64,000 nt of DNA, taken from positions 76,830 through 140,829 of the forward strand of contig JAFWNB010000003.1 of NCBI GenBank assembly GCA_017545505.1, in the 5' to 3' direction. A program made the position numbers and the translations under genes. Source of the stretch: Candidatus Saccharimonadota bacterium. Lineage in GTDB: Bacteria; Patescibacteriota; Saccharimonadia; Saccharimonadales; Saccharimonadaceae. Below the pieces are notes generated by a model. It was not told the origin of the DNA and did no database searches. It was given only the letters and a program-made list of their open reading frames with translations. Positions 11,758-51,604 of the stretch are shown here, piece by piece; positions within the stretch are counted from its first letter, which is position 1; the number at the start of each line of letters is the position of its first letter.

Positions 11758-11982
11758 ATGGCAGAAAAATCTGAAAAGTCCGAAAAAGGTAAAAGTGGTG
11801 CAGGTAAATTCTTTTTAGGCGCTCTACTTGGTGGTATCGCTGGAGCAGTCGCTGGTAAATTTATCAAAATTGGCGCAGATGACGGCGGCGAAGAAATTGA
11901 AGAAAAATGCAATTGCAAAGGTAAATGTGATTGCAAAAAAGAGCCAGAAAAGAAACCGGAAGAAAAAAGTACTAAGAAATGA
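11758..11982 (+). CDS. YtxH-like small protein
   Basis: GKFFLGALLGGIAGAVAG motif, charged tail, SD aggagg. Confidence 0.6.
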   Translation: MAEKSEKSEKGKSGAGKFFLGALLGGIAGAVAGKFIKIGADDGGEEIEEKCNCKGKCDCKKEPEKKPEEKSTKK

Positions 11983-14900
11983 AATTAAAGCCTAGTGATT
12001 TTGTACACCTACACAATCACACGCATTATTCTTTACTGGATGGGCTAACTAAAATCCCAGAACTTGTTGATTTTGTTAAAAAAGATGGCATGGAAGCCGT
12101 AGCCGTTACAGACCATGGCACTATGTCTGGTTTGGTAGAGCTATATAAAGAATGTAACGATAAAGGAATTAAACCAATTCTCGGTCTTGAGGCTTATGTT
12201 GCAGCTCGCAAAATGACAGACAAAGACCCAGCTCACGATAAACAAAGATTCCACATTACTTTGCTTGCCATGAATAATCAAGGTTATGAAAACCTTTGTC
12301 GGATTATGAGTAATGCAGAAGAATATGGTAAATATTACAAACCTCGTACAGACCACGACGAGTTAGAAAAATATAATGAAGGAGTCATATGTCTCTCTGG
12401 TTGTATGGGGTCAGAAATCTCCGAAGCTATTCGTGCAAACGACGACAAAAGAGCATTAGACCTGATAGAGTGGTATAAAAATACCTTTAAAGACCGTTTT
12501 TACCTAGAAATGCAGGACCATGGCCACCCGAAATCCTCTACTCATTCTGAAGAGCAAAAGAAAGTTAACGATTGGCTTATGGCGCACGCCAAAGAACTAA
12601 ATCTTCCACTCGTCGTTACCTGCGATGCTCACTATTTAAAACACGAGGACCAAGATGCGCACGAAGTTTTACTTTGTATTGGTACAGCCGCATATCTTTC
12701 TGACACTAATCGTATGAGCTTAAAAGATTACGACCTCCATGTTATTTCGTCGCAAGAAATAATTGACCACTGGCAAGATACCTGCCCGGAAGCCGTGTTG
12801 AACACTAAAAAAATCGCCGAGCGCTGCAACGTAGATTTGCAACTTGGTCGTATTTTGATTCCGAAATTTCCAGTTCCAGATGGTGAAGACGAAAAAACGT
12901 ATTTAGACAAACTAGTTTTTCAAGGTCTAACTCATCGTTACGGCGACAAAAGTCTTGAAGAAGCCACGAAACTAGACATAAAAGCTTGCCGCAAAATACT
13001 AACTGAAGTCGATAAAAAACGTGACGACGACCATAAAATACTCCCGCGCATCGACTATGAACTGTCTGTAGTAGATAAAATGGGCTATAATGGCTACTTT
13101 TTGATTGTGCAAGACTTCATTAACTGGGGTAAAAGCCAACGAATCGTTTATGGCCCAGGCCGTGGCTCTGCAGCTGGCTCAATTTTAGCATACGCTCTTA
13201 GGATAACTGACCTAGACCCCCTCAAATATGATCTTCTTTTCGAAAGATTTCTAAATCCAGACCGTATTAGTATGCCAGATATCGATACCGATATTCAGGA
13301 TACTAGACGCGACGAAGTAATTGAATATTGTACAAGAAAATATGGTGAAGCAAGAGTATCAAACATCGCAACCTTTGGTAAAATGATGGCTAAAAACGCC
13401 GTACGAGATGTCGCACGCGTACTAGAAGTACCCTACGCTGAGGCAGATCGCTTGGCAAAGCTTGTCCCAGATCCAGTACAAGGTCATCATGTACATCTCG
13501 CTGATGCAATTAAAGACGTACCAGATCTAAAACAAGAATATGAAACCAACCCCACCTCTAAAGAAGTTATAGATTTTGCTTCTAGACTGGAAGGAACCAT
13601 TAGGAATCACGGCGTTCACGCATGTGGTGTTATCATCGCGCCAGATGATTTGGTTAAGTTCTTACCGCTAGAAGTTTCCGCTAAGGGTCCAATCGCTGCC
13701 CAATTCCCAATGGGTCAAGTCGAAGAACTAGGTCTGCTTAAGATGGATTTTCTTGGCTTGTCTAACCTTTCGGTTATTAATAATGCCTTGCGTATGATTC
13801 GCAAAGTCTATCATAACGATATAAACTTATCCAATCTTCCATTGGACGACAAAAAGACCTACGAACTACTACAACGCGCCGAAACCACCGGTGTATTCCA
13901 ATTGGAATCTGCCGGTATGAAACGGTACTTAAAAGATCTCAAAGCTTCTACCTTTGAAGATATTATCGCTATGGTGGCATTATATCGTCCAGGACCAATG
14001 CAGTTTATTGATTCATTTATTAAGAGAAAACACGGCGAAGAAAAAATCACCTATCTTCACCCTGGTCTAGAAAATTCGCTTAAAAACACCTACGGGATTT
14101 TAATTTACCAAGAACAGTTCATGCAGATTAGTAAGGAATGGTGTGGCTTTACTGGCGGCCAGGCCGATACTTTACGTAAAGCCGTAGGAAAGAAAAAAGT
14201 CGATCTCATGAATAAGGTCAAACCGGAATTCATTGAAGGGGCAATTAAAGTTGGTGGGGCAACTAAAGAAATTGCCGAAACTTTCTGGGATCAGTTGCTA
14301 GAATTTGCGAATTATTGCTTCAATAAGTCACATGCCGCATGTTACGCTTTAATAGCCTATTGGACAGCCTACCTAAAAGCGCATTACCCCGATGCCTTTA
14401 TGGCGGCACTTATGACGGCAGATATGCGCTGGACCGATCGCCTTGCTATCGAAATCGCTGAGTGTAAAAAAATGGGATTAAAAGTATTAGGCCCAGATAT
14501 CAACGAGAGCTATGGTGATTTTGGCATCGTAGGCGGTGAAAAAACCATACGCTTTGGTCTTTCTGGTATCAAAAACATGGGCAAGGCCTTAGTAGAGGAA
14601 TACGTCATACCAGAGCGCGACAAAAATGGTCCGTTCAAATCTGTTTGCGATTTTGCTAAACGAGTAGATTCCACTAAATTTAATAAAAAATCCTGGGAAT
14701 CCGCCATCAAAACCGGTGCATTTGACCGTTTTGGATCTTCGCGCTCAGATTTATTGTTTAATCTAGAAGCTATTCAGGCTTATGGAGCTAAAATTCAAAA
14801 AGATGTAGGTTCTGGCCAAACTGATTTATTTGGTATGATGGGCGAAGCTGGGGCAATCCCAGAAGTAGAAATCAAACCCGCTCCAGTACAACATCCAGAC

Positions 14901-15695
14901 AAAGAGTTACTTCTTTGGGAACGCGATTTAATGGGGCTTTATCTTTCAGCCCACCCACTAGATAAATACGACACTTACTTCGAAGAACAAACCCATCCAA
15001 TGTCTTTAATAACAGCCGAAAATGACAACAAAATTGTAACAATCGGCGGAATTATCACGACCGTACGTACCATTTTAACGAAAAAAGGCGATAAAATGGC
15101 CTTTGTTAAAATAGAGAATAAAACCGACGAAACCGAATTTATAGTTTTTCCGAGTATATTTGAAGAATTTGGAGGAAAACTAGTAGTCGACAACGTCGTT
15201 AAAGTGAGAGGGCGCGTCAATGCTAAAGATAAAAATGGCAACGTTACTTCTGACGCTAAAATACTAGCAGAAGCTGTAGAATTGATTTCGGACGAAATCC
15301 TAGAAAACTATAAATCAACCGGCACCAAATTAGCCGCGCCAATCACCGCGCCAAATCAAGGTCAAAAAAGAGGTCGCTCATCAGCCGAAAGAGTCTATAA
15401 TAAAACGCAAAAGGATTCTTCAATACCAGAAGAAAAACATATTTTAAAAGAGCCACCCAAAGACCCCCGTAAAGAACGCTTATATATTTTAATTAATAAT
15501 CCAGAAGACACGGAAACACTAACCGCCATTCGCCGCCTAGCAGACATCTACCTCGGGATGCAAGAAGTGATATTAGTATTGAAAAATGGCGAAGAAAAAC
15601 GCCCACTCCGTATGCCATTTAAAGTTGAAGTAAGTGAAGAATTACTTACAAAACTGAACGATTTAGTAGGCGCAGACAACGTCAAATTATGCTAA
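11979..15695 (+). CDS. dnaE: DNA polymerase III alpha subunit
   Basis: PHP FVHLHNHTHYSLLDG, GPGRGSAAGS, MPDIDTD, FNKSHAACY, OB fold. Confidence 0.98.
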   Translation: MKLKPSDFVHLHNHTHYSLLDGLTKIPELVDFVKKDGMEAVAVTDHGTMSGLVELYKECNDKGIKPILGLEAYVAARKMTDKDPAHDKQRFHITLLAMNNQGYENLCRIMSNAEEYGKYYKPRTDHDELEKYNEGVICLSGCMGSEISEAIRANDDKRALDLIEWYKNTFKDRFYLEMQDHGHPKSSTHSEEQKKVNDWLMAHAKELNLPLVVTCDAHYLKHEDQDAHEVLLCIGTAAYLSDTNRMSLKDYDLHVISSQEIIDHWQDTCPEAVLNTKKIAERCNVDLQLGRILIPKFPVPDGEDEKTYLDKLVFQGLTHRYGDKSLEEATKLDIKACRKILTEVDKKRDDDHKILPRIDYELSVVDKMGYNGYFLIVQDFINWGKSQRIVYGPGRGSAAGSILAYALRITDLDPLKYDLLFERFLNPDRISMPDIDTDIQDTRRDEVIEYCTRKYGEARVSNIATFGKMMAKNAVRDVARVLEVPYAEADRLAKLVPDPVQGHHVHLADAIKDVPDLKQEYETNPTSKEVIDFASRLEGTIRNHGVHACGVIIAPDDLVKFLPLEVSAKGPIAAQFPMGQVEELGLLKMDFLGLSNLSVINNALRMIRKVYHNDINLSNLPLDDKKTYELLQRAETTGVFQLESAGMKRYLKDLKASTFEDIIAMVALYRPGPMQFIDSFIKRKHGEEKITYLHPGLENSLKNTYGILIYQEQFMQISKEWCGFTGGQADTLRKAVGKKKVDLMNKVKPEFIEGAIKVGGATKEIAETFWDQLLEFANYCFNKSHAACYALIAYWTAYLKAHYPDAFMAALMTADMRWTDRLAIEIAECKKMGLKVLGPDINESYGDFGIVGGEKTIRFGLSGIKNMGKALVEEYVIPERDKNGPFKSVCDFAKRVDSTKFNKKSWESAIKTGAFDRFGSSRSDLLFNLEAIQAYGAKIQKDVGSGQTDLFGMMGEAGAIPEVEIKPAPVQHPDKELLLWERDLMGLYLSAHPLDKYDTYFEEQTHPMSLITAENDNKIVTIGGIITTVRTILTKKGDKMAFVKIENKTDETEFIVFPSIFEEFGGKLVVDNVVKVRGRVNAKDKNGNVTSDAKILAEAVELISDEILENYKSTGTKLAAPITAPNQGQKRGRSSAERVYNKTQKDSSIPEEKHILKEPPKDPRKERLYILINNPEDTETLTAIRRLADIYLGMQEVILVLKNGEEKRPLRMPFKVEVSEELLTKLNDLVGADNVKLC

Positions 15696-15705
15696 AAAAT
15701 AAAAC

Positions 15706-15801
15706 TGTCGAACCAACTTCGACAATTTTTGGCAATAATTACCACTGTTATTTGCAATTTTGCGATTAATTATTTACTTTTTGTCAAATTTAGTATATAA
15801 T
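15706..15801 (+). repeat. Promoter block copy 1 (palindrome + TTTACT-17-TATAAT)
   Basis: Near-identical to 18558-18652. Palindrome tgtcgaa-ccaac-ttcgaca at 15706-15724; -35 at 15773-15778; -10 at 15796-15801. Confidence 0.85.
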
Positions 15802-15937
15802 TAGCACAGTTCAAAAAAATGAACTAGTCCATTAAAAAAGAAGGGTTTCGACCTTTCGCGACAAATATTCCTCCAAGTAAACTTGGAGTTTTATATATAA
15901 GTTGTCAAGTTGAAAACAAATAGAAAGGAGAGACATT

Positions 15938-16129
15938 ATGAAGAAAATGTCCAACGAAACCCCGAAGATCCGCAGAGCGAAGCAGGCGACACCGCCGCCG
16001 CTGCCTCCCAGGAGAGAAAAACCGGCACCTCCGCCGCTTCCTCCTCGGAGAACAGAACAGGCGCCCCCGCCGCTGCCTCCCAAAAGGAAAAAAACGGCAC
16101 CCCCGCCGCTTCCTCCTCGGAGAAAATAA
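15938..16129 (+). CDS. 63-aa Pro/Arg-rich peptide with four PPPLPP(R/K)R repeats
   Basis: SD aaggag 8 nt upstream; 36-nt repeat units with synonymous Pro codon variation. Confidence 0.7.
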   Translation: MKKMSNETPKIRRAKQATPPPLPPRREKPAPPPLPPRRTEQAPPPLPPKRKKTAPPPLPPRRK

Positions 16130-16138
16130 ATTAGGCAT

Positions 16139-16485
16139 AGATCTGTCACCTAAATGGGATACCATTTAGGTGATCCGACCTTAAGTCGGATCTTGTCCCC
16201 AGCTTAGCTGGGTCTCATGGAGCGAAAAAAGCCAAGAAGACAAATCTTGGCGATGCGCACGCCAAGATAAACTCTTACTCTTTGGTGGACGCACCAAGAG
16301 ATGGCTTTATAAGCAGTGAGACAGATCTGGGAGCCCGCGTAGTTACGCAATATCATTCCGGAGTCTTCCTATCTAGTAGAGATTATCTCACTGGATAGGA
16401 ACGTTCTCCGAAGGCGCCCCCCACACGCGACCTTCTAGCTGATATCGGCAGAAGGATAGTGACGAAAGGAGAAATCCTTCGCGTA
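16139..16485 (+). ncRNA. Unidentified structured RNA, copy 1
   Basis: ~125-nt core (16199-16322) near-identical to 19178-19303 with compensatory changes; shared 3' domain acgcg...agga-GAAA-tcct...cgcgt. Confidence 0.7.
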
Positions 16486-16494
16486 AACCAGTTA

Positions 16495-16526
16495 CCCCCG
16501 ACTCAGAAAGAGTTGGGGGCTTTTTA
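16495..16526 (+). terminator. Intrinsic terminator of cassette 1
   Basis: cccccgactc-agaaa-gagttggggg then cttttt. Confidence 0.8.
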
Positions 16527-16595
16527 TGCTATAATTAAGCTAGACCCGGCGAGGATAACCTCTTAAACTCTTACGACCGAGTAGCAGGAGGCTAT

Positions 16596-17142: not shown

Positions 17143-17973
17143 GTGGGAAAAAGCAGAGAAAAATATAATATCTTCGGAACTAACAAAGAAACTTGGGGCC
17201 AGCGCCTCGCAAATGCTATTTGCGGGCATTCATACGAGTATGGTATACTTGGATGCTTCCTTACGGAAGTGACCGAACTCCTTAAGGCAAAACTCTCTGA
17301 AAGAGAGTTCGAAATTGCCGTAAGGTGTTTCGGTATAAATGCCGCAAATAAAAGAGAGACTCAAAAGGCTGTAGCTGCCAGTTTGGGTATCGCGGAGTCC
17401 CAGATGAGATCCACATCCAAAAAGGTTGTGGAAAAAATCAACCGGACCTGCGGTCCAGACCTGAGGGGGCTAATGCTGAAACCCGATGAGGTCTCGAAAA
17501 GAATCGTCGGCCTAGAACACGAAAACGAGCGACTCAGAAAGCAAGCGGTGGACCCCGCTAGCTTCACGCGCCTTCAGCAGGAGGCCAAAAACGCTCGGAA
17601 CGCCTATGCCGGCGAAAAGGCCAAGCGCGAAAAGCTTGAAGCCGAACTTGCTAAGCTTGTCGCCTCAGTCGAGAAGCTCAAGGAAGAGCGCCGAGTCGCT
17701 ATTAACGAAAAGGCGAAAGCCCTGAGCAAATACGACGCAATAGTAACTCAGGTAACCAACGTGATAACAGCAACGATAGACTTTAACGTCACGTTAGAGA
17801 CCTTTGACTTCAGCGCGGAAACCATGAATGAGCTCACTAGAGCTCATATCGTGAGTGTAGAAGCTCTTCTAAAGAGAGACTCTCACTCCCTCCGAAGATT
17901 AGGAGTGAGCAATAAAGCGATCTCTGAAATCATGGAGAAACTGAGGCTTAAGGGCTTCGAGCTGACCGCGTAA
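17143..17973 (+). CDS. sigma70 region 4 HTH + coiled coil + RNA polymerase alpha-CTD-like fusion protein
   Basis: LSEREFEIAVRCFGI...TQKAVAASLGI (sigma4 pattern); LETFDFSAETMNELTRAHIVSVEALL...EIMEKLRLKGFEL (alpha-CTD pattern). GTG start; terminator ~17997-18028. Confidence 0.6.
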   Translation: MGKSREKYNIFGTNKETWGQRLANAICGHSYEYGILGCFLTEVTELLKAKLSEREFEIAVRCFGINAANKRETQKAVAASLGIAESQMRSTSKKVVEKINRTCGPDLRGLMLKPDEVSKRIVGLEHENERLRKQAVDPASFTRLQQEAKNARNAYAGEKAKREKLEAELAKLVASVEKLKEERRVAINEKAKALSKYDAIVTQVTNVITATIDFNVTLETFDFSAETMNELTRAHIVSVEALLKRDSHSLRRLGVSNKAISEIMEKLRLKGFELTA

Positions 17974-18557: not shown

Positions 18558-18652
18558 TGTCGAACCAACTTCGACAATTTTTATAAAAATTACCCCTGTT
18601 ATTTGCAATTTTACGATTAATTATTTACTTTTTGTCAATTTTAGTATATAAT
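18558..18652 (+). repeat. Promoter block copy 2
   Basis: Near-identical to 15706-15801; -35 at 18624-18629, -10 at 18647-18652. Confidence 0.85.
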
Positions 18653-18786
18653 ATATCACAAGCTTACATAATTAAGCTAGAAATTTAAAAAGGAGGAGAT
18701 TATTCGCTTCATTTTCTTTTCGAAGGAATTTCCTTCGAAATTTCACATATAGAAACAATAAGGAAATTCACGAAAAGGAGATGCAT

Positions 18787-19062
18787 ATGTTCTACAAAAT
18801 CGCAAGCTTTCGGTATTATGATGGAGCCATCGACGAAAAAGCAAGCTTTTACGTCAAAGAGGAAGATATTTCTTCCTTCGTCAACTACCTGATAAAATGC
18901 GGTTATTCCGGCGAATTCGATGGAATTAGCGGTATCTACACCATAAAATCCTTCGATAGATATAATGATCCTATACATTCAACGATCATTATAGACCGGA
19001 TTCGCATCTTTAACAGGAAGAGGTGGCATTCATTTGTTCGCGATTCAGTGCCATCGTCTTGA
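18787..19062 (+). CDS. Hypothetical protein (cassette 2 cargo)
   Basis: SD aaaaggag 6 nt before ATG 18787; no similarity to the cassette 1 peptide. Confidence 0.6.
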   Translation: MFYKIASFRYYDGAIDEKASFYVKEEDISSFVNYLIKCGYSGEFDGISGIYTIKSFDRYNDPIHSTIIIDRIRIFNRKRWHSFVRDSVPSS

Positions 19063-19139
19063 CGTTGGGCTACTGACTTATCGGGAAAACCTTGCGGTTC
19101 GGTCGAAATCGTAGGAACGTTTATAAGACGTGATCGACC

Positions 19140-19384
19140 TTCTTCTATTGCTTAAATTATCGCCAGTTTAAGCATAACCAGTTCTACTGGGTCCCACGGA
19201 GCGAAACAAAAAGCCAAGAAGACAAATCTTGGCGGTGCGCACGCCAAAATAAACTCTTACTCTTTGGTGGACGCACCGAGAGAAGGCTTTATAAGCAGTG
19301 GGGTAGAAGAATTCCAAAAAGGCGGATAAAATCCGAACGAACGCGCTCCGATAAGGAGATACTAACAAAGGAGAAATCCTCGCG
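19140..19384 (+). ncRNA. Unidentified structured RNA, copy 2
   Basis: Homologous to 16139-16485; closing helix ttcttcta/tagaagaa; compensatory changes in several stems. Confidence 0.7.
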
Positions 19385-19387
19385 TAG

Positions 19388-19412
19388 GGAAAAGCCGCCT
19401 GAGCGGCTTTTT
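19388..19412 (+). terminator. Intrinsic terminator of cassette 2
   Basis: aaaagccgc-ctga-gcggcttttttt. Confidence 0.85.
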
Positions 19413-19484
19413 TTCATGCATTTAATATAATTCGTAATAAGATACCACTAAATGATTCTTTATCTATTATGGTATAATTAATCT

Positions 19485-19901
19485 ATGAAAAAGCCCAAAA
19501 CCCTAGATTCGGTAACAGTCAATCGTAAAGCAAAATACGATTATATTTTGGGCGATGAACTCACCGTAGGCATGGCACTTTCTGGGCCCGAAGTTCGCTC
19601 TATTCGCGATCATCACGTTCAGCTTAAGGGTTCATTTGTTACCATCAGAAACTCAGAGCTCTGGTTAAATAATCTTACTCTCGGCGCCGAAACTACCCGC
19701 AATATCAAGCTCCTCGCCACCAAAAAACAAATTAAAAGCCTGGAGCGCGAAAAGGTCGCCGGCTCCACCATCGTACCAGTCAAACTCCTTGGTGGTGCTC
19801 GCCATATTAAACTCGTAATTGCTATTGGCAAAGGAAAGAAAAAATATGACAAACGCGAATCAATCAAAAAACGCGACATAGAGCGAGGACGCTATGCTTA
19901 A
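19485..19901 (+). CDS. smpB: SsrA-binding protein
   Basis: NRKAKYDY, G..L.G.EV.SIR, IGKGKKKYDKRESIKKRD. Confidence 0.95.
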   Translation: MKKPKTLDSVTVNRKAKYDYILGDELTVGMALSGPEVRSIRDHHVQLKGSFVTIRNSELWLNNLTLGAETTRNIKLLATKKQIKSLEREKVAGSTIVPVKLLGGARHIKLVIAIGKGKKKYDKRESIKKRDIERGRYA

Positions 19902-23300: not shown

Positions 23301-23351
23301 ACCATCATTATACATCATTATTATTTGTGCTATAATAACTATACAATATTA

Positions 23352-23440
23352 ATATCAAGAAGGAGCGAGGGAACGGCCCAACGACCTCCTGCCAACCTAG
23401 CTTTGCCAAGGTGGTAATTCCGACCAGAAAGGAAAGATAT
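23352..23440 (+). promoter_or_regulatory. SAM-I riboswitch upstream of metK
   Basis: atatcaaga...gagggaacggccc...gccaacc...aaggtggtaattcc...gaaagatat matches the SAM-I core; P1 atatc/gatat abuts the start codon. Confidence 0.88.
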
Positions 23441-24482
23441 GTTCTATCGAACTGCGGAGAGTGTTTCTCCAAAACATCCAGACAAACTTTGCGACCAAAT
23501 CAGCGATGCGATTTTGGATGCCTATTTAGCTAAGGATCCTAACGCACGCGTAGCCGCCGAAACCTGTGGTGGACACGGCGTAGTATTTGTGACTGGCGAA
23601 ATCACCAGTACGGCGAACGAAGTAGATATTCCAAAAATCGTCAAACGCATTGCAGGTGATGATGTAGAAGTTCATACTAAAGTCGTCAAACAATCACCAG
23701 AAATCGCTCAAGGCGTAGATACTGGTGGTGCCGGCGACCAGGGAATCATGATTGGCTACGCCTGTGATGAAACTCCTGAAATGGTACCACGCGAAGTAAT
23801 CTTAGCTCGCCGCCTCAATCAGTTTATTTATGAAAAATATCCATATGACGGCAAAACTCAAGTCACTATCGCCCCGAACGGCTCGATCGATTCAATTGTG
23901 GCAAGTTTCCAGAATGTACCACACGATAAATTAGAAAAGTTGGTTCGAGAGTTTATTGAAAAATTTGGGTTAATTGATGCTCCAAAACCATATTCTGAGG
24001 ACCATAAGCTTGGGCGAGCGCCCTCGAGCGCGTCCGAAGAAGATGGTTTGGAGCACGCAATCAAACTTCACATTAACCCGGCTGGCGACTGGAACCAAGG
24101 CGGCTTCGATGCTGATACTGGACTTACCGGACGCAAGCTTATCGTAGATAATTATGGCCCACGCGTCGCTATTGGCGGTGGTTGCTATTCTGGCAAAGAT
24201 CCAAGTAAAGTAGACCGCTCCGCTGCCTACATGGCTAGAAAAATTGCCGTAGATTATTTAAAAAAACGCCACGCCCATGAAGTTTTAGTCCGCCTAGCTT
24301 ACGCCATCGGCTACGCCGAACCATTAGAAAAAACCGTAATCATCGATGGAAAACCCGAAGAAATCGAAGGTTACGACTTAACACCAAACGGTATTATTAA
24401 ATTCTTAGATTTAAAACGACCAATCTACGAAAAAACTGCTATGTGGGGCCACTACGGCGAAGGTTTTGACTGGGATAAATAA
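23439..24482 (+). CDS. metK: S-adenosylmethionine synthetase
   Basis: ESVSPKHPDKLCDQISD, GAGDQG, DTGLTGRKLIVD, GKDPSKVDRSAAY; carries a palindromic insertion. Confidence 0.97.
   Translation: MFYRTAESVSPKHPDKLCDQISDAILDAYLAKDPNARVAAETCGGHGVVFVTGEITSTANEVDIPKIVKRIAGDDVEVHTKVVKQSPEIAQGVDTGGAGDQGIMIGYACDETPEMVPREVILARRLNQFIYEKYPYDGKTQVTIAPNGSIDSIVASFQNVPHDKLEKLVREFIEKFGLIDAPKPYSEDHKLGRAPSSASEEDGLEHAIKLHINPAGDWNQGGFDADTGLTGRKLIVDNYGPRVAIGGGCYSGKDPSKVDRSAAYMARKIAVDYLKKRHAHEVLVRLAYAIGYAEPLEKTVIIDGKPEEIEGYDLTPNGIIKFLDLKRPIYEKTAMWGHYGEGFDWDK
23985..24049 (+). repeat. Palindromic repeat element, in frame within metK
   Basis: Core gaggaccataagcttgggcgagcgccctcgagcgcgtccga matches 46160-46225 and 57588-57660. 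Confidence 0.8.
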
Positions 24483-50373: not shown

Positions 50374-51604
50374 TAATGGCTTCTTCCAAAATTATATCAG
50401 CCAAACGTCTGGCCGCATCGGCTCGTGCTTCCTCATGTAACCGATCAGCCATATCAGCACGCAATCTAGGTGATTTTATTAAATGTCGTATCTCTTCAAA
50501 TAGTATATTTGGGTCTTCCATCATTTTCATATCATCCACCACGACCGCTGCTTTTGCCATCTCTAATCTTTCGGCGTTCTTTTGCTGATGTCCACCCGGT
50601 AAACGTGCAAACGGCACTAGAATCACTGCTTTCTTTAGCGCTGCAAGCTCAGCAATTGTTGTCGCCCCAGCTCTAGACACCACTACATCCGCTGCGCCCA
50701 TCAATTCGTTCATTGTAGTATTAAATTCCCACATCCTAAAATTAGATTCAAGGCTAGCTTTATCCCAGTTTTCATACTTTTTAAGATCGACCATATTTTC
50801 AAAGTGTTTACGCCCAGCAATTAGCCCGACCGAAGTAAATTCTAATAGTTTTGGCAAAATCGCCCTAGTCGCTTCATTTAAGTTTTCTGATCCTTGTGAG
50901 CCACCAGTAATCACTACGAGTGGTTTTTCTGTATTAAAAGAAAAGGCTTTTTTTAATGAAATCTGCCGAGTAGCACTTACGGCTTTAAACTCTGGCCCAA
51001 CCGGAATACCAGTCCATACATAATTCGGATGCTTTTCTAGCATTTCGTTAGTTAAAGGCATACCAAAAGCTACTTTTTTAGCTTGCTTCATTAATAATCT
51101 ATTAGCTAGACCCGCAACCACGTCAGATTCATGGATTACATAGGGTATCTTAAACATCCGAGCCATTAGTCCAATCGGCAAGCAAACATACCCACCTTTC
51201 AAAAAAATAATATTTGGACGCGTTTTTTTAACCACTAATCTACAAAAACTCGTAACGATTCCAGCTAGAAAACCAAAAAAACCAACTATATTACCAAATA
51301 TTAGCTCTTTCAAAGTTACCTCAAAATGCACAAAATAATCTTTAAAATGCCAATCAGCATAACGATGGAACTTCCCTGCCGGCAATCGTCGCACCCTAAT
51401 ATAAGGCGCTTTACGTACTTTCTTGCGATCGTCGCCCCAGGCAAAACCAATTTCTGTAGTTAATTTAGTAACGTTTTTATAATATTTAAAATCAGTCCAG
51501 AATTCTACCTCAGCGCGAGGTTTTTTCTCTAATATTTCACGGACGACTGCGACGGCTGGAGTTATATGACCTCCGGAGCCCCCGCCCACTATTAGTATCT
51601 TCAT
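50366..51604 (-). CDS. murG: UDP-GlcNAc:lipid I GlcNAc transferase
   Basis: GGGSGGHITPA, KGGYV, HESD, GGSQGS, SRAGATT, HQQKNA. Confidence 0.95.
   Translation of the reverse strand: MKILIVGGGSGGHITPAVAVVREILEKKPRAEVEFWTDFKYYKNVTKLTTEIGFAWGDDRKKVRKAPYIRVRRLPAGKFHRYADWHFKDYFVHFEVTLKELIFGNIVGFFGFLAGIVTSFCRLVVKKTRPNIIFLKGGYVCLPIGLMARMFKIPYVIHESDVVAGLANRLLMKQAKKVAFGMPLTNEMLEKHPNYVWTGIPVGPEFKAVSATRQISLKKAFSFNTEKPLVVITGGSQGSENLNEATRAILPKLLEFTSVGLIAGRKHFENMVDLKKYENWDKASLESNFRMWEFNTTMNELMGAADVVVSRAGATTIAELAALKKAVILVPFARLPGGHQQKNAERLEMAKAAVVVDDMKMMEDPNILFEEIRHLIKSPRLRADMADRLHEEARADAARRLADIILEEAING

Follow-up and report, generated by a model that had tools for sequence, protein, structure and literature searches.

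Between dnaE (11979-15695) and smpB (19485-19901) lies an open reading frame of 63 codons whose predicted product, MKKMSNETPKIRRAKQATPPPLPPRREKPAPPPLPPRRTEQAPPPLPPKRKKTAPPPLPPRRK, is built on a proline-rich repeat. The question raised by this locus is whether such a frame, sitting directly ahead of a structured RNA, is translated at all and, if it is, what its product might do. Positions are those of the window, the 64,000-nt stretch of DNA that was analyzed, which belongs to a 707-kb Saccharibacteria assembly (39% GC, 94% complete); the DNA runs containing the sequence are gut metagenomes, and the labelled ones are from sheep and cattle. The encoded peptide starts with MKKMSNETPKIRRAKQA and continues with four 12-residue units, each composed of (T/A)PPPLPP(R/K)R and a short polar linker, resulting in a pI of 12.0, a net charge of +14.5 and a proline content of 35%. 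The four repeats and their 12-residue period had been reported in a preliminary description made from the sequence alone, and they are recovered here both in the frame itself (hereafter the PPPLPP ORF) and by Tandem Repeats Finder (36-nt period, 3.8 copies, 15990-16126). Units 1 and 3 resemble each other, as do units 2 and 4 (89.7% identity over 58 nt), and the array is therefore taken to have grown from 36 to 72 to 144 nt. The N-terminus, read directly, contains no hydrophobic stretch, and hence, as described previously, the peptide carries no signal peptide; no other export signal was seen there either. Predicted tryptic peptides specific to this frame are AKQATPPPLPPR, EKPAPPPLPPR, TEQAPPPLPPK/TEQAPPPLPPR and TAPPPLPPR.

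The base composition of the tract is as unusual as its product. The PPPLPP ORF has a GC content of 0.62 versus 0.39 for the genome, and 200-nt windows give 0.555-0.56 at the ORF versus 0.29-0.40 in the flanks, in agreement with the contrast noted earlier; the high GC arises from 22 CCN codons and from G-rich third positions. The tract has a C/G ratio of 1.6 and is poor in T (9%), and all six frames are open across it. Hence, the mere presence of an open frame is no evidence of coding. The array is not a chance occurrence in this genome, and a six-frame scan of the 707 kb for other repeated PPPxPP or PPxPP[RK] arrays returned none, bar one antisense case on contig C6 (~50970-51070). There, a real protein with a Gly-rich C-terminal tail (…GGGGGGFSGGGGGGGGFSGR) is encoded on the minus strand, and the Pro-rich PPPPPPPPEKPPPPPPEKP is what the complementary strand of that tail reads, frames of these two compositions being mirror images of one another.

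The PPPLPP ORF is embedded in a compact unit, termed here cassette A (15706-16526), the features of which are listed in Table 1. A single promoter-like site is found upstream and a single strong terminator downstream (match at 16495-16519), with no promoter between them, and the ORF lies in the sense orientation of this promoter-terminator unit. The Shine-Dalgarno (SD) sequence, already remarked upon as a good one, is separated from the ATG by 5 nt (6 nt if counted from the last G of GGAG). The preliminary description had also placed the start of an RNA just 3' of the stop codon, and a structured RNA of ~400 nt does begin 5 nt past it, with a minimum free energy of -176 kcal/mol and a z-score of -12.7 relative to shuffled sequences.

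Table 1. Features of cassette A and location of its sister cassette in the window.
Feature	Position	Strand	Remarks
Palindromic hairpin (dnaE terminator), first element of the duplicated block	15706..15724	+	Terminator-like match on both strands; identical at 18558-18576 in cassette B
Cassette promoter, TTTACT-17-TATAAT	15773..15801	+	10/12 matches; ~93% identical over 96 nt to the cassette B promoter
Transcript 5'-terminal hairpin, AGTTC...GAACT	15808..15825	+	
Leader hairpin CTCCAAG-TAAA-CTTGGAG, then TTTTATATAT	15871..15898	+	Terminator/attenuator-like; homologous hairpin in cassette B
Shine-Dalgarno sequence, AAAGGAGAG	15924..15932	+	Aligns with the cassette B SD
PPPLPP ORF, 63 aa	15938..16129	+	ATG start, TAA stop; fills the cargo slot of cassette A
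Tandem array of four units of 36 nt (12 codons), paired into two double units of 72 nt	15989..16126	+	
Structured RNA body, cassette A	16134..16494	+	No Rfam match
Conserved covarying RNA core	16191..16334	+	Model R1, 114 bits
Intrinsic terminator	16495..16526	+	10-bp stem with 7 GC pairs, U tract
Sister cassette B	18558..19415	+	Hairpin and promoter as in cassette A; leader and SD homologous; RNA; terminator

A sister cassette, termed B, lies within the same dnaE-smpB interval, so that the window contains two copies of the structured RNA (16134-16526 and 19063-19415). The leaders of both cassettes share one architecture, in which a 5' hairpin is followed by an A-rich stretch, a second hairpin with a U/A tract and then AAAGGAGA, and the two cassettes also have in common the 3' motif GA.AAAGGAGAAATCC.CGCGTA and the terminator. 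Their RNA cores are 92-95% identical (19170-19312 in cassette B), reaching 95.7% over a 93-nt stretch. The sequence between the SD and the RNA is, in contrast, unrelated: cassette B carries at this position a 91-residue ORF (ORF B, 18787-19062) that bears no relation to the PPPLPP ORF and is itself without relatives, yet is called by gene callers and has its product in the public protein collection. In both ORF-bearing leaders a hairpin and U/A-rich tract are located just 5' of the SD (15871-15898 and 18713-18755); they could act as an attenuator gating the ORF and RNA that follow, the tract being terminator-like in cassette A.

Several other elements occur in or near this interval. A 276-residue coiled-coil protein is encoded between the two cassettes (17143-17973, +) and gives weak matches to sigma-70 region 4 and to RNA polymerase alpha-CTD/AF1548-C-like domains; in another species (G347), a 342-residue protein adjoining the RNA (L030 2971-3999, -) has a sigma-4-like segment in common with it (pairwise E 3e-6). 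A SAM riboswitch (RF00162, 58.8 bits) occupies 23349-23443, ahead of a gene starting at 23439. The smpB gene directly follows the cassette B RNA, likewise in the lineage of locus L024, an adjacency that prompted consideration of a tmRNA or two-piece tmRNA. This identification was rejected, since a canonical tmRNA is found elsewhere in the genome (C3:93143-93497, 88 bits) and the RNAs analyzed here match neither RF00023 nor any other Rfam family. Finally, a 4093-nt metagenome contig aligns to 15771-15802 and 16521-16538, with ~1380 nt between the promoter -10 and the post-terminator sequence versus 720 nt here, a hint that another organism or strain may possess one more cassette, filled differently.

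An Rfam search with the RNAs of cassettes A and B matched no family, and members of the family were located by a match in a congener, by a pattern scan of metagenomes and by a covariance model built on the core (R1, with 44 pairs, 10 of them showing compensatory changes). The pattern scan yielded seven metagenome matches, two real and five due to chance, and none in viral contigs. Within the genus, the R1 model has matches in 18 of the 369 genomes, and out of 401 genomes sampled from the family it matches 3; the loci collected include L016, L023, L024, L029, L030 and L033-L049. All members present the same promoter type and a CAAGTTC-type 5' hairpin, this start being kept in ORF-less and ORF-bearing members alike, and the order of elements in the transcription unit is promoter, 5' hairpin, an optional segment comprising leader, SD and small ORF, the structured RNA with its covarying 140-nt core, and terminator. 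Neither the RNA nor the ORF belongs to any described family, and the structured RNA family, from one genus of ruminant-gut Saccharibacteria, is undescribed.

What occupies the optional segment differs from locus to locus. In at least five loci (L023, L026, L042, L044 and L049) this cargo slot is empty, with 137-307 nt from promoter to core and no SD-bearing ORF, and in more than 10 loci the RNA is preceded by ORFs that are not proline-rich. The slot ORFs fall into four unrelated types, of which two are conserved: an acidic protein of ~102 residues found in seven loci (C-type; L016 3145-3453, L024 1065-1382 and five more) and a basic, Cys-rich protein of 119-127 residues found in two (F-type); ORF B and the PPPLPP ORF are each known from one locus. 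The C-type proteins of the C and E lineages are 55% identical, differ by in-frame indels and show a dN/dS of 0.37. The C-type protein, characterized by FLSPNTIA.IARG...YPNGYGASI...WEV.LLKD, gives a confident, beta-rich AlphaFold model (pLDDT 84) that has no neighbor in the PDB (best E 0.69), and a weak match to phrog_4074; Pfam and PHROGs return nothing for the ORFs of cassettes A and B. Since the slot contents vary while the RNA recurs, the RNA is the constant element and the ORF is optional and exchangeable. Judging from these comparisons, the slot is genuinely coding in other loci, and a conserved, covarying core together with the existence of ORF-less copies indicates that the RNA has a function of its own.

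Whether the slot is also coding in cassette A was assessed from several angles. The SD and ATG of the PPPLPP ORF are found at the position homologous to the start of ORF B and constitute the sole SD-equipped start in the tract, and the repeat period of 36 nt is a multiple of three. When the four units are compared with one another, the ORF frame gives a pN/pS of 0.23, versus 0.96-4.4 for four other frames, and the synonymous variation previously noted among the repeats is evident in the PPPLPPRR core, where all but one of the seven variable sites are synonymous, the exception being an R to K change. The wobble-aligned antisense frame, reading LLGGSGGG, gives a pN/pS of 0.21, however, so that two frames, and not a single one, are compatible with the pattern of substitutions. 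Polymorphism offers a second view of the same question. The PPPLPP ORF exists as two intact alleles, in this species alone. The second allele, recovered from several independent metagenomes, differs by seven substitutions and no indel across the 192 nt of the ORF, versus two 1-nt insertions in its 125-nt leader; it thus retains the reading frame along with the repeat, where the preliminary description had pointed to repeats conserved without their frame as evidence against coding. Three substitutions are synonymous and the others include P21S, K49R and K51E, and three of six changed codons are non-synonymous; unit 1 of this allele reads PPSLPP, and in unit 3 conversion has produced the PPRREK version found in unit 1. 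Because the ORF (7/192) has diverged at least as much as the non-coding RNA beside it (~12/400) and about half of the codon changes are non-synonymous, constraint on the peptide is weak.

Codon usage and database searches bear on the origin of the frame. CCA accounts for none of its 22 proline codons versus 49% of proline codons in the genome (p ~ 4e-7), and the rare codons CTG and CGG are present. Import of the ORF in an actinobacterial codon dialect was considered and found no support, as arginine is encoded mostly by AGA/AGG, lysine mostly by AAA and glutamate always by GAA. Derivation of the repeats from the RNA 5' domain of other members, which contains GGCUCCGCC motifs, was likewise rejected, local alignments being no better than those of shuffled sequences. 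In a collection of 15 billion proteins, exact matching recovered neither allele of the peptide nor any of four alternative frames, and the PPPLPP ORF has therefore been called by no gene caller. A search of 5.8 billion protein clusters detected no homologs, and a six-frame search of 400 genomes of the family produced just one out-of-frame chance match. At the RNA level, where the evidence consists of assembled metatranscriptome contigs that give neither strand nor 5' ends nor a depth ratio that can be used, one 151-nt contig of depth 2, possibly attributable to DNA carry-over, covers 15985-16135; further contigs cover the structured RNA, and none spans the junction between ORF and RNA, as contigs break at repeats. 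Translated or not, the PPPLPP ORF is evolutionarily young. The earlier inference that the tract encodes a peptide is thus moderately supported by the placement of SD and ATG, the in-frame pN/pS and the intact second allele, and is held back by the equally low antisense value, the aberrant codons and the weak constraint; on balance, these sequence data make translation of the PPPLPP ORF somewhat probable.

Two explanations dispense with the peptide altogether. The tract could be a non-coding module, its C-rich repeats serving as a part of the RNA (for instance through five CCUCC anti-SD-like seeds or protein-binding sites) or simply as a spacer generated by repeat expansion, with the ORF being an accidental outcome of low T content. 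Six open frames, codon usage devoid of CCA, an ORF that is uncalled and without homologs, and weak constraint between alleles are all compatible with this explanation, as is a tract that folds somewhat better than shuffled sequences (z -3.65) and matches the neighboring RNA in GC. It does not account, however, for an SD and ATG exactly where the real cassette B ORF starts, nor for a period that is a multiple of three with variable sites at third codon positions, which a sequence-specific RNA motif does not predict; moreover, the tract is unlike the 5' domains of other family members. A role as a sponge for CsrA or Hfq through GGA motifs recurring every 36 nt was eliminated, since tblastn detects no homolog of either protein in the 94%-complete assembly. 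We consider a non-coding module unlikely. Alternatively, the real gene could be the antisense ORF of 105 codons (15832..16149, -) that encodes the LLGGSGGG repeats. Its low pN/pS among repeats is matched by the fact that only two of the seven allele differences alter its product, and the genome does encode real proteins that end in Gly-rich tails, such as the one on contig C6. This ORF is nonetheless discounted because it starts with GTG, lacks an SD and has no promoter-like site on the minus strand; it is also antisense to the promoter-terminator unit, would run into the leader and encodes a product whose remainder is nonsense-like and which is absent from the protein collection. Such a gene is hardly credible.

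In the explanation that we favor, at about even chances, the PPPLPP ORF is a young coding insert, specific to this species, that occupies the 5' cargo slot of a transcript with dual function and is translated, in dependence on EF-P, into a cargo peptide. The basic unit is the structured RNA, with its promoter, 5' hairpin, folded body with the conserved 140-nt core and terminator; many copies also carry, after the 5' hairpin and ahead of the body, a leader, an SD and a small ORF, the identity of the ORF depending on the lineage. The ORF of cassette A would have been born by the successive tandem duplications deduced above, and translation from the common initiation region would most likely yield an unfolded polyproline-II (PPII) peptide with a charge of ~+15. 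Its four PPP and four PP motifs would make synthesis dependent on EF-P, a homolog of which is encoded in the genome (C4:44187-44741, 38% identity, E 2e-36). The long ORFs of this genome contain six PPP motifs in 210,946 residues, versus ~11 expected from composition, and the PPPLPP ORF alone contains four; given this load and the encoded EF-P, its synthesis should be EF-P-dependent. The peptide may then act in trans as a multivalent cationic PPII ligand, candidate partners being the co-transcribed RNA, the ribosome or a component of the host cell, and would presumably be dispensable for the RNA. If it has a function, the most plausible target would be a polyanion or a surface that recognizes proline, its own RNA and the ribosome being the nearest candidates. 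A bolder version, to which we give little credence, would have the RNA, in this view an abundant one, serve as a plug-in platform whose 5' slot captures and expresses micro-genes, with a polyproline/arginine peptide born de novo through repeat expansion that forms a ribonucleoprotein with its own RNA or targets the ribosome of the bacterial host, under EF-P gating.

If the ORF is translated, its product may still act differently. The preliminary description had proposed that the peptide stalls ribosomes and thereby governs folding of the RNA, and a cis-acting leader could indeed operate if slow, EF-P- and proline-dependent translation of the PPP motifs set the folding, processing or synthesis of the downstream RNA. 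The four PPP and four PP motifs, the rarity of PPP in the genome and the presence of EF-P are in keeping with such a mechanism, as is a stop codon 5 nt before the first long-range helix, the 5' strand of which would be covered by a terminating ribosome. EF-P is also known to maintain transcription-translation coupling (PMC5021804), and leader ORFs rich in proline codons with EF-P-dependent effects provide a precedent (PMC5299641, PMC6460261). Against it, most members of the family present the RNA either with no ORF (at least five loci) or with an ordinary, non-proline ORF ahead of it (more than 10), and the RNA thus needs no stalling leader; in the fold predicted for the complete transcript, ORF and RNA body form distinct domains with no alternative pairing; and 63 codons with four repeats far exceed known leader peptides. 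A tblastn search of the 94%-complete assembly, with an approximate query, further detected no Rho homolog (best E 0.59), which makes a C-rich rut or polarity route unavailable; a Rho rut site masked by translation, considered in view of the C/G ratio, was discarded on the same grounds. Regulation through stalling is hence mechanistically possible but weakened, and in our estimation improbable; the control of RNA folding proposed earlier finds no support in these observations.

An equally doubtful proposition is that the translated peptide is an effector directed at another cell, either a mimic of class II SH3 or WW ligands acting on a eukaryote or a Pro/Arg-rich, ribosome-targeting peptide acting on a bacterial host. 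Saccharibacteria live attached to other bacteria (PMC7427843), which favors such a role. The high net charge and proline content of the peptide point the same way, and every repeat fits the class II consensus PxΦPxR exactly, as PPLPPR or PPLPPK, four times in all. The SH3-ligand mimicry put forward in the preliminary description is therefore sustained as far as the motif is concerned, and fails to find support in the genome, which has no match to SH3_1 (PF00018) or SH3_3 (PF08239), or in the peptide, which lacks an export signal. We know of no eukaryotic partner for these bacteria. In addition, the peptide is confined to a single species in which one allele breaks the motif (PPSLPP), and its 63 residues make it longer than known proline-rich antimicrobial peptides, whose PRP repeats it does not contain. 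The resemblance to such peptides suggested earlier is one of composition only: with no PRP or oncocin-type motif and no signal or propeptide, this part of the original proposal is not supported.

Should the cargo peptide be translated, the PPPLPP ORF would represent an unusually clear case of a very young gene, restricted to one species, built from repeats and written off-dialect, which exploits the promoter, ribosome-binding site and terminator already available within a non-coding RNA gene; its product would be the heaviest single EF-P client in the 707-kb genome. Factors mediating host interaction or defense in Saccharibacteria could plausibly be sought among the variable cargo of these cassettes, and a slot that truly served as a platform would illustrate natural gene birth inside a non-coding RNA with EF-P-gated synthesis. 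Without translation, what is left is a new RNA whose leader contains a C-rich repeat.

Comparison with known systems places the locus near several of them. SOS1 contains a class II SH3 ligand, PPPVPPRRR, and bacterial effectors with proline-rich repeats include EspF and EspFU. Four exact tandem PxΦPxR motifs with basic flanks suit multivalent PPII binding of this kind; unlike those ligands and effectors, the PPPLPP peptide has no secretion signal, comprises 63 residues without any other domain and is encoded in a genome devoid of SH3. PR-39, Bac7, oncocin and apidaecin, which block the ribosomal exit tunnel, are eukaryotic, secreted peptides of 18-43 residues with PRP/YLPRP-type motifs. The PPPLPP peptide is, like them, Pro/Arg-rich and strongly cationic, and PR-39 contains PPxLPPR-like strings; it differs in being bacterial, in having 63 residues and no signal, and in being made of PPPLPPRR units separated by acidic or polar linkers. 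The Salmonella mgtP and mgtL leaders are ORFs of fewer than 20 codons, including proline codons, with defined alternative hairpins and an EF-P readout (PMC5299641, PMC6460261). The PPPLPP ORF resembles them in presenting consecutive proline codons in a short ORF just 5' of a structured RNA in a genome encoding EF-P, and departs from them in its 63 codons, in the lack of any alternative pairing found and in the nature of the downstream element, a non-coding RNA that also occurs without the ORF. The arrangement is comparable to that of dual-function bacterial RNAs such as RNAIII/hld, SgrS/SgrT, SR1/SR1P, AzuCR and VcdRP (reviewed in PMC12612679 and PMC12310071). As in these RNAs, an SD-bearing small ORF is located 5' of a conserved structured RNA and an intrinsic terminator, the two functions occupying separate segments of what is here a predicted single transcript. 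The RNA of this family is longer (~400-550 nt) than the described examples, with no homology to them and no known base-pairing target, and, unlike them, it also occurs in ORF-less form and has its ORF swapped among lineages, with at least four unrelated types; if the PPPLPP ORF is translated, this RNA would represent a new kind of dual-function RNA, one with an interchangeable coding module.
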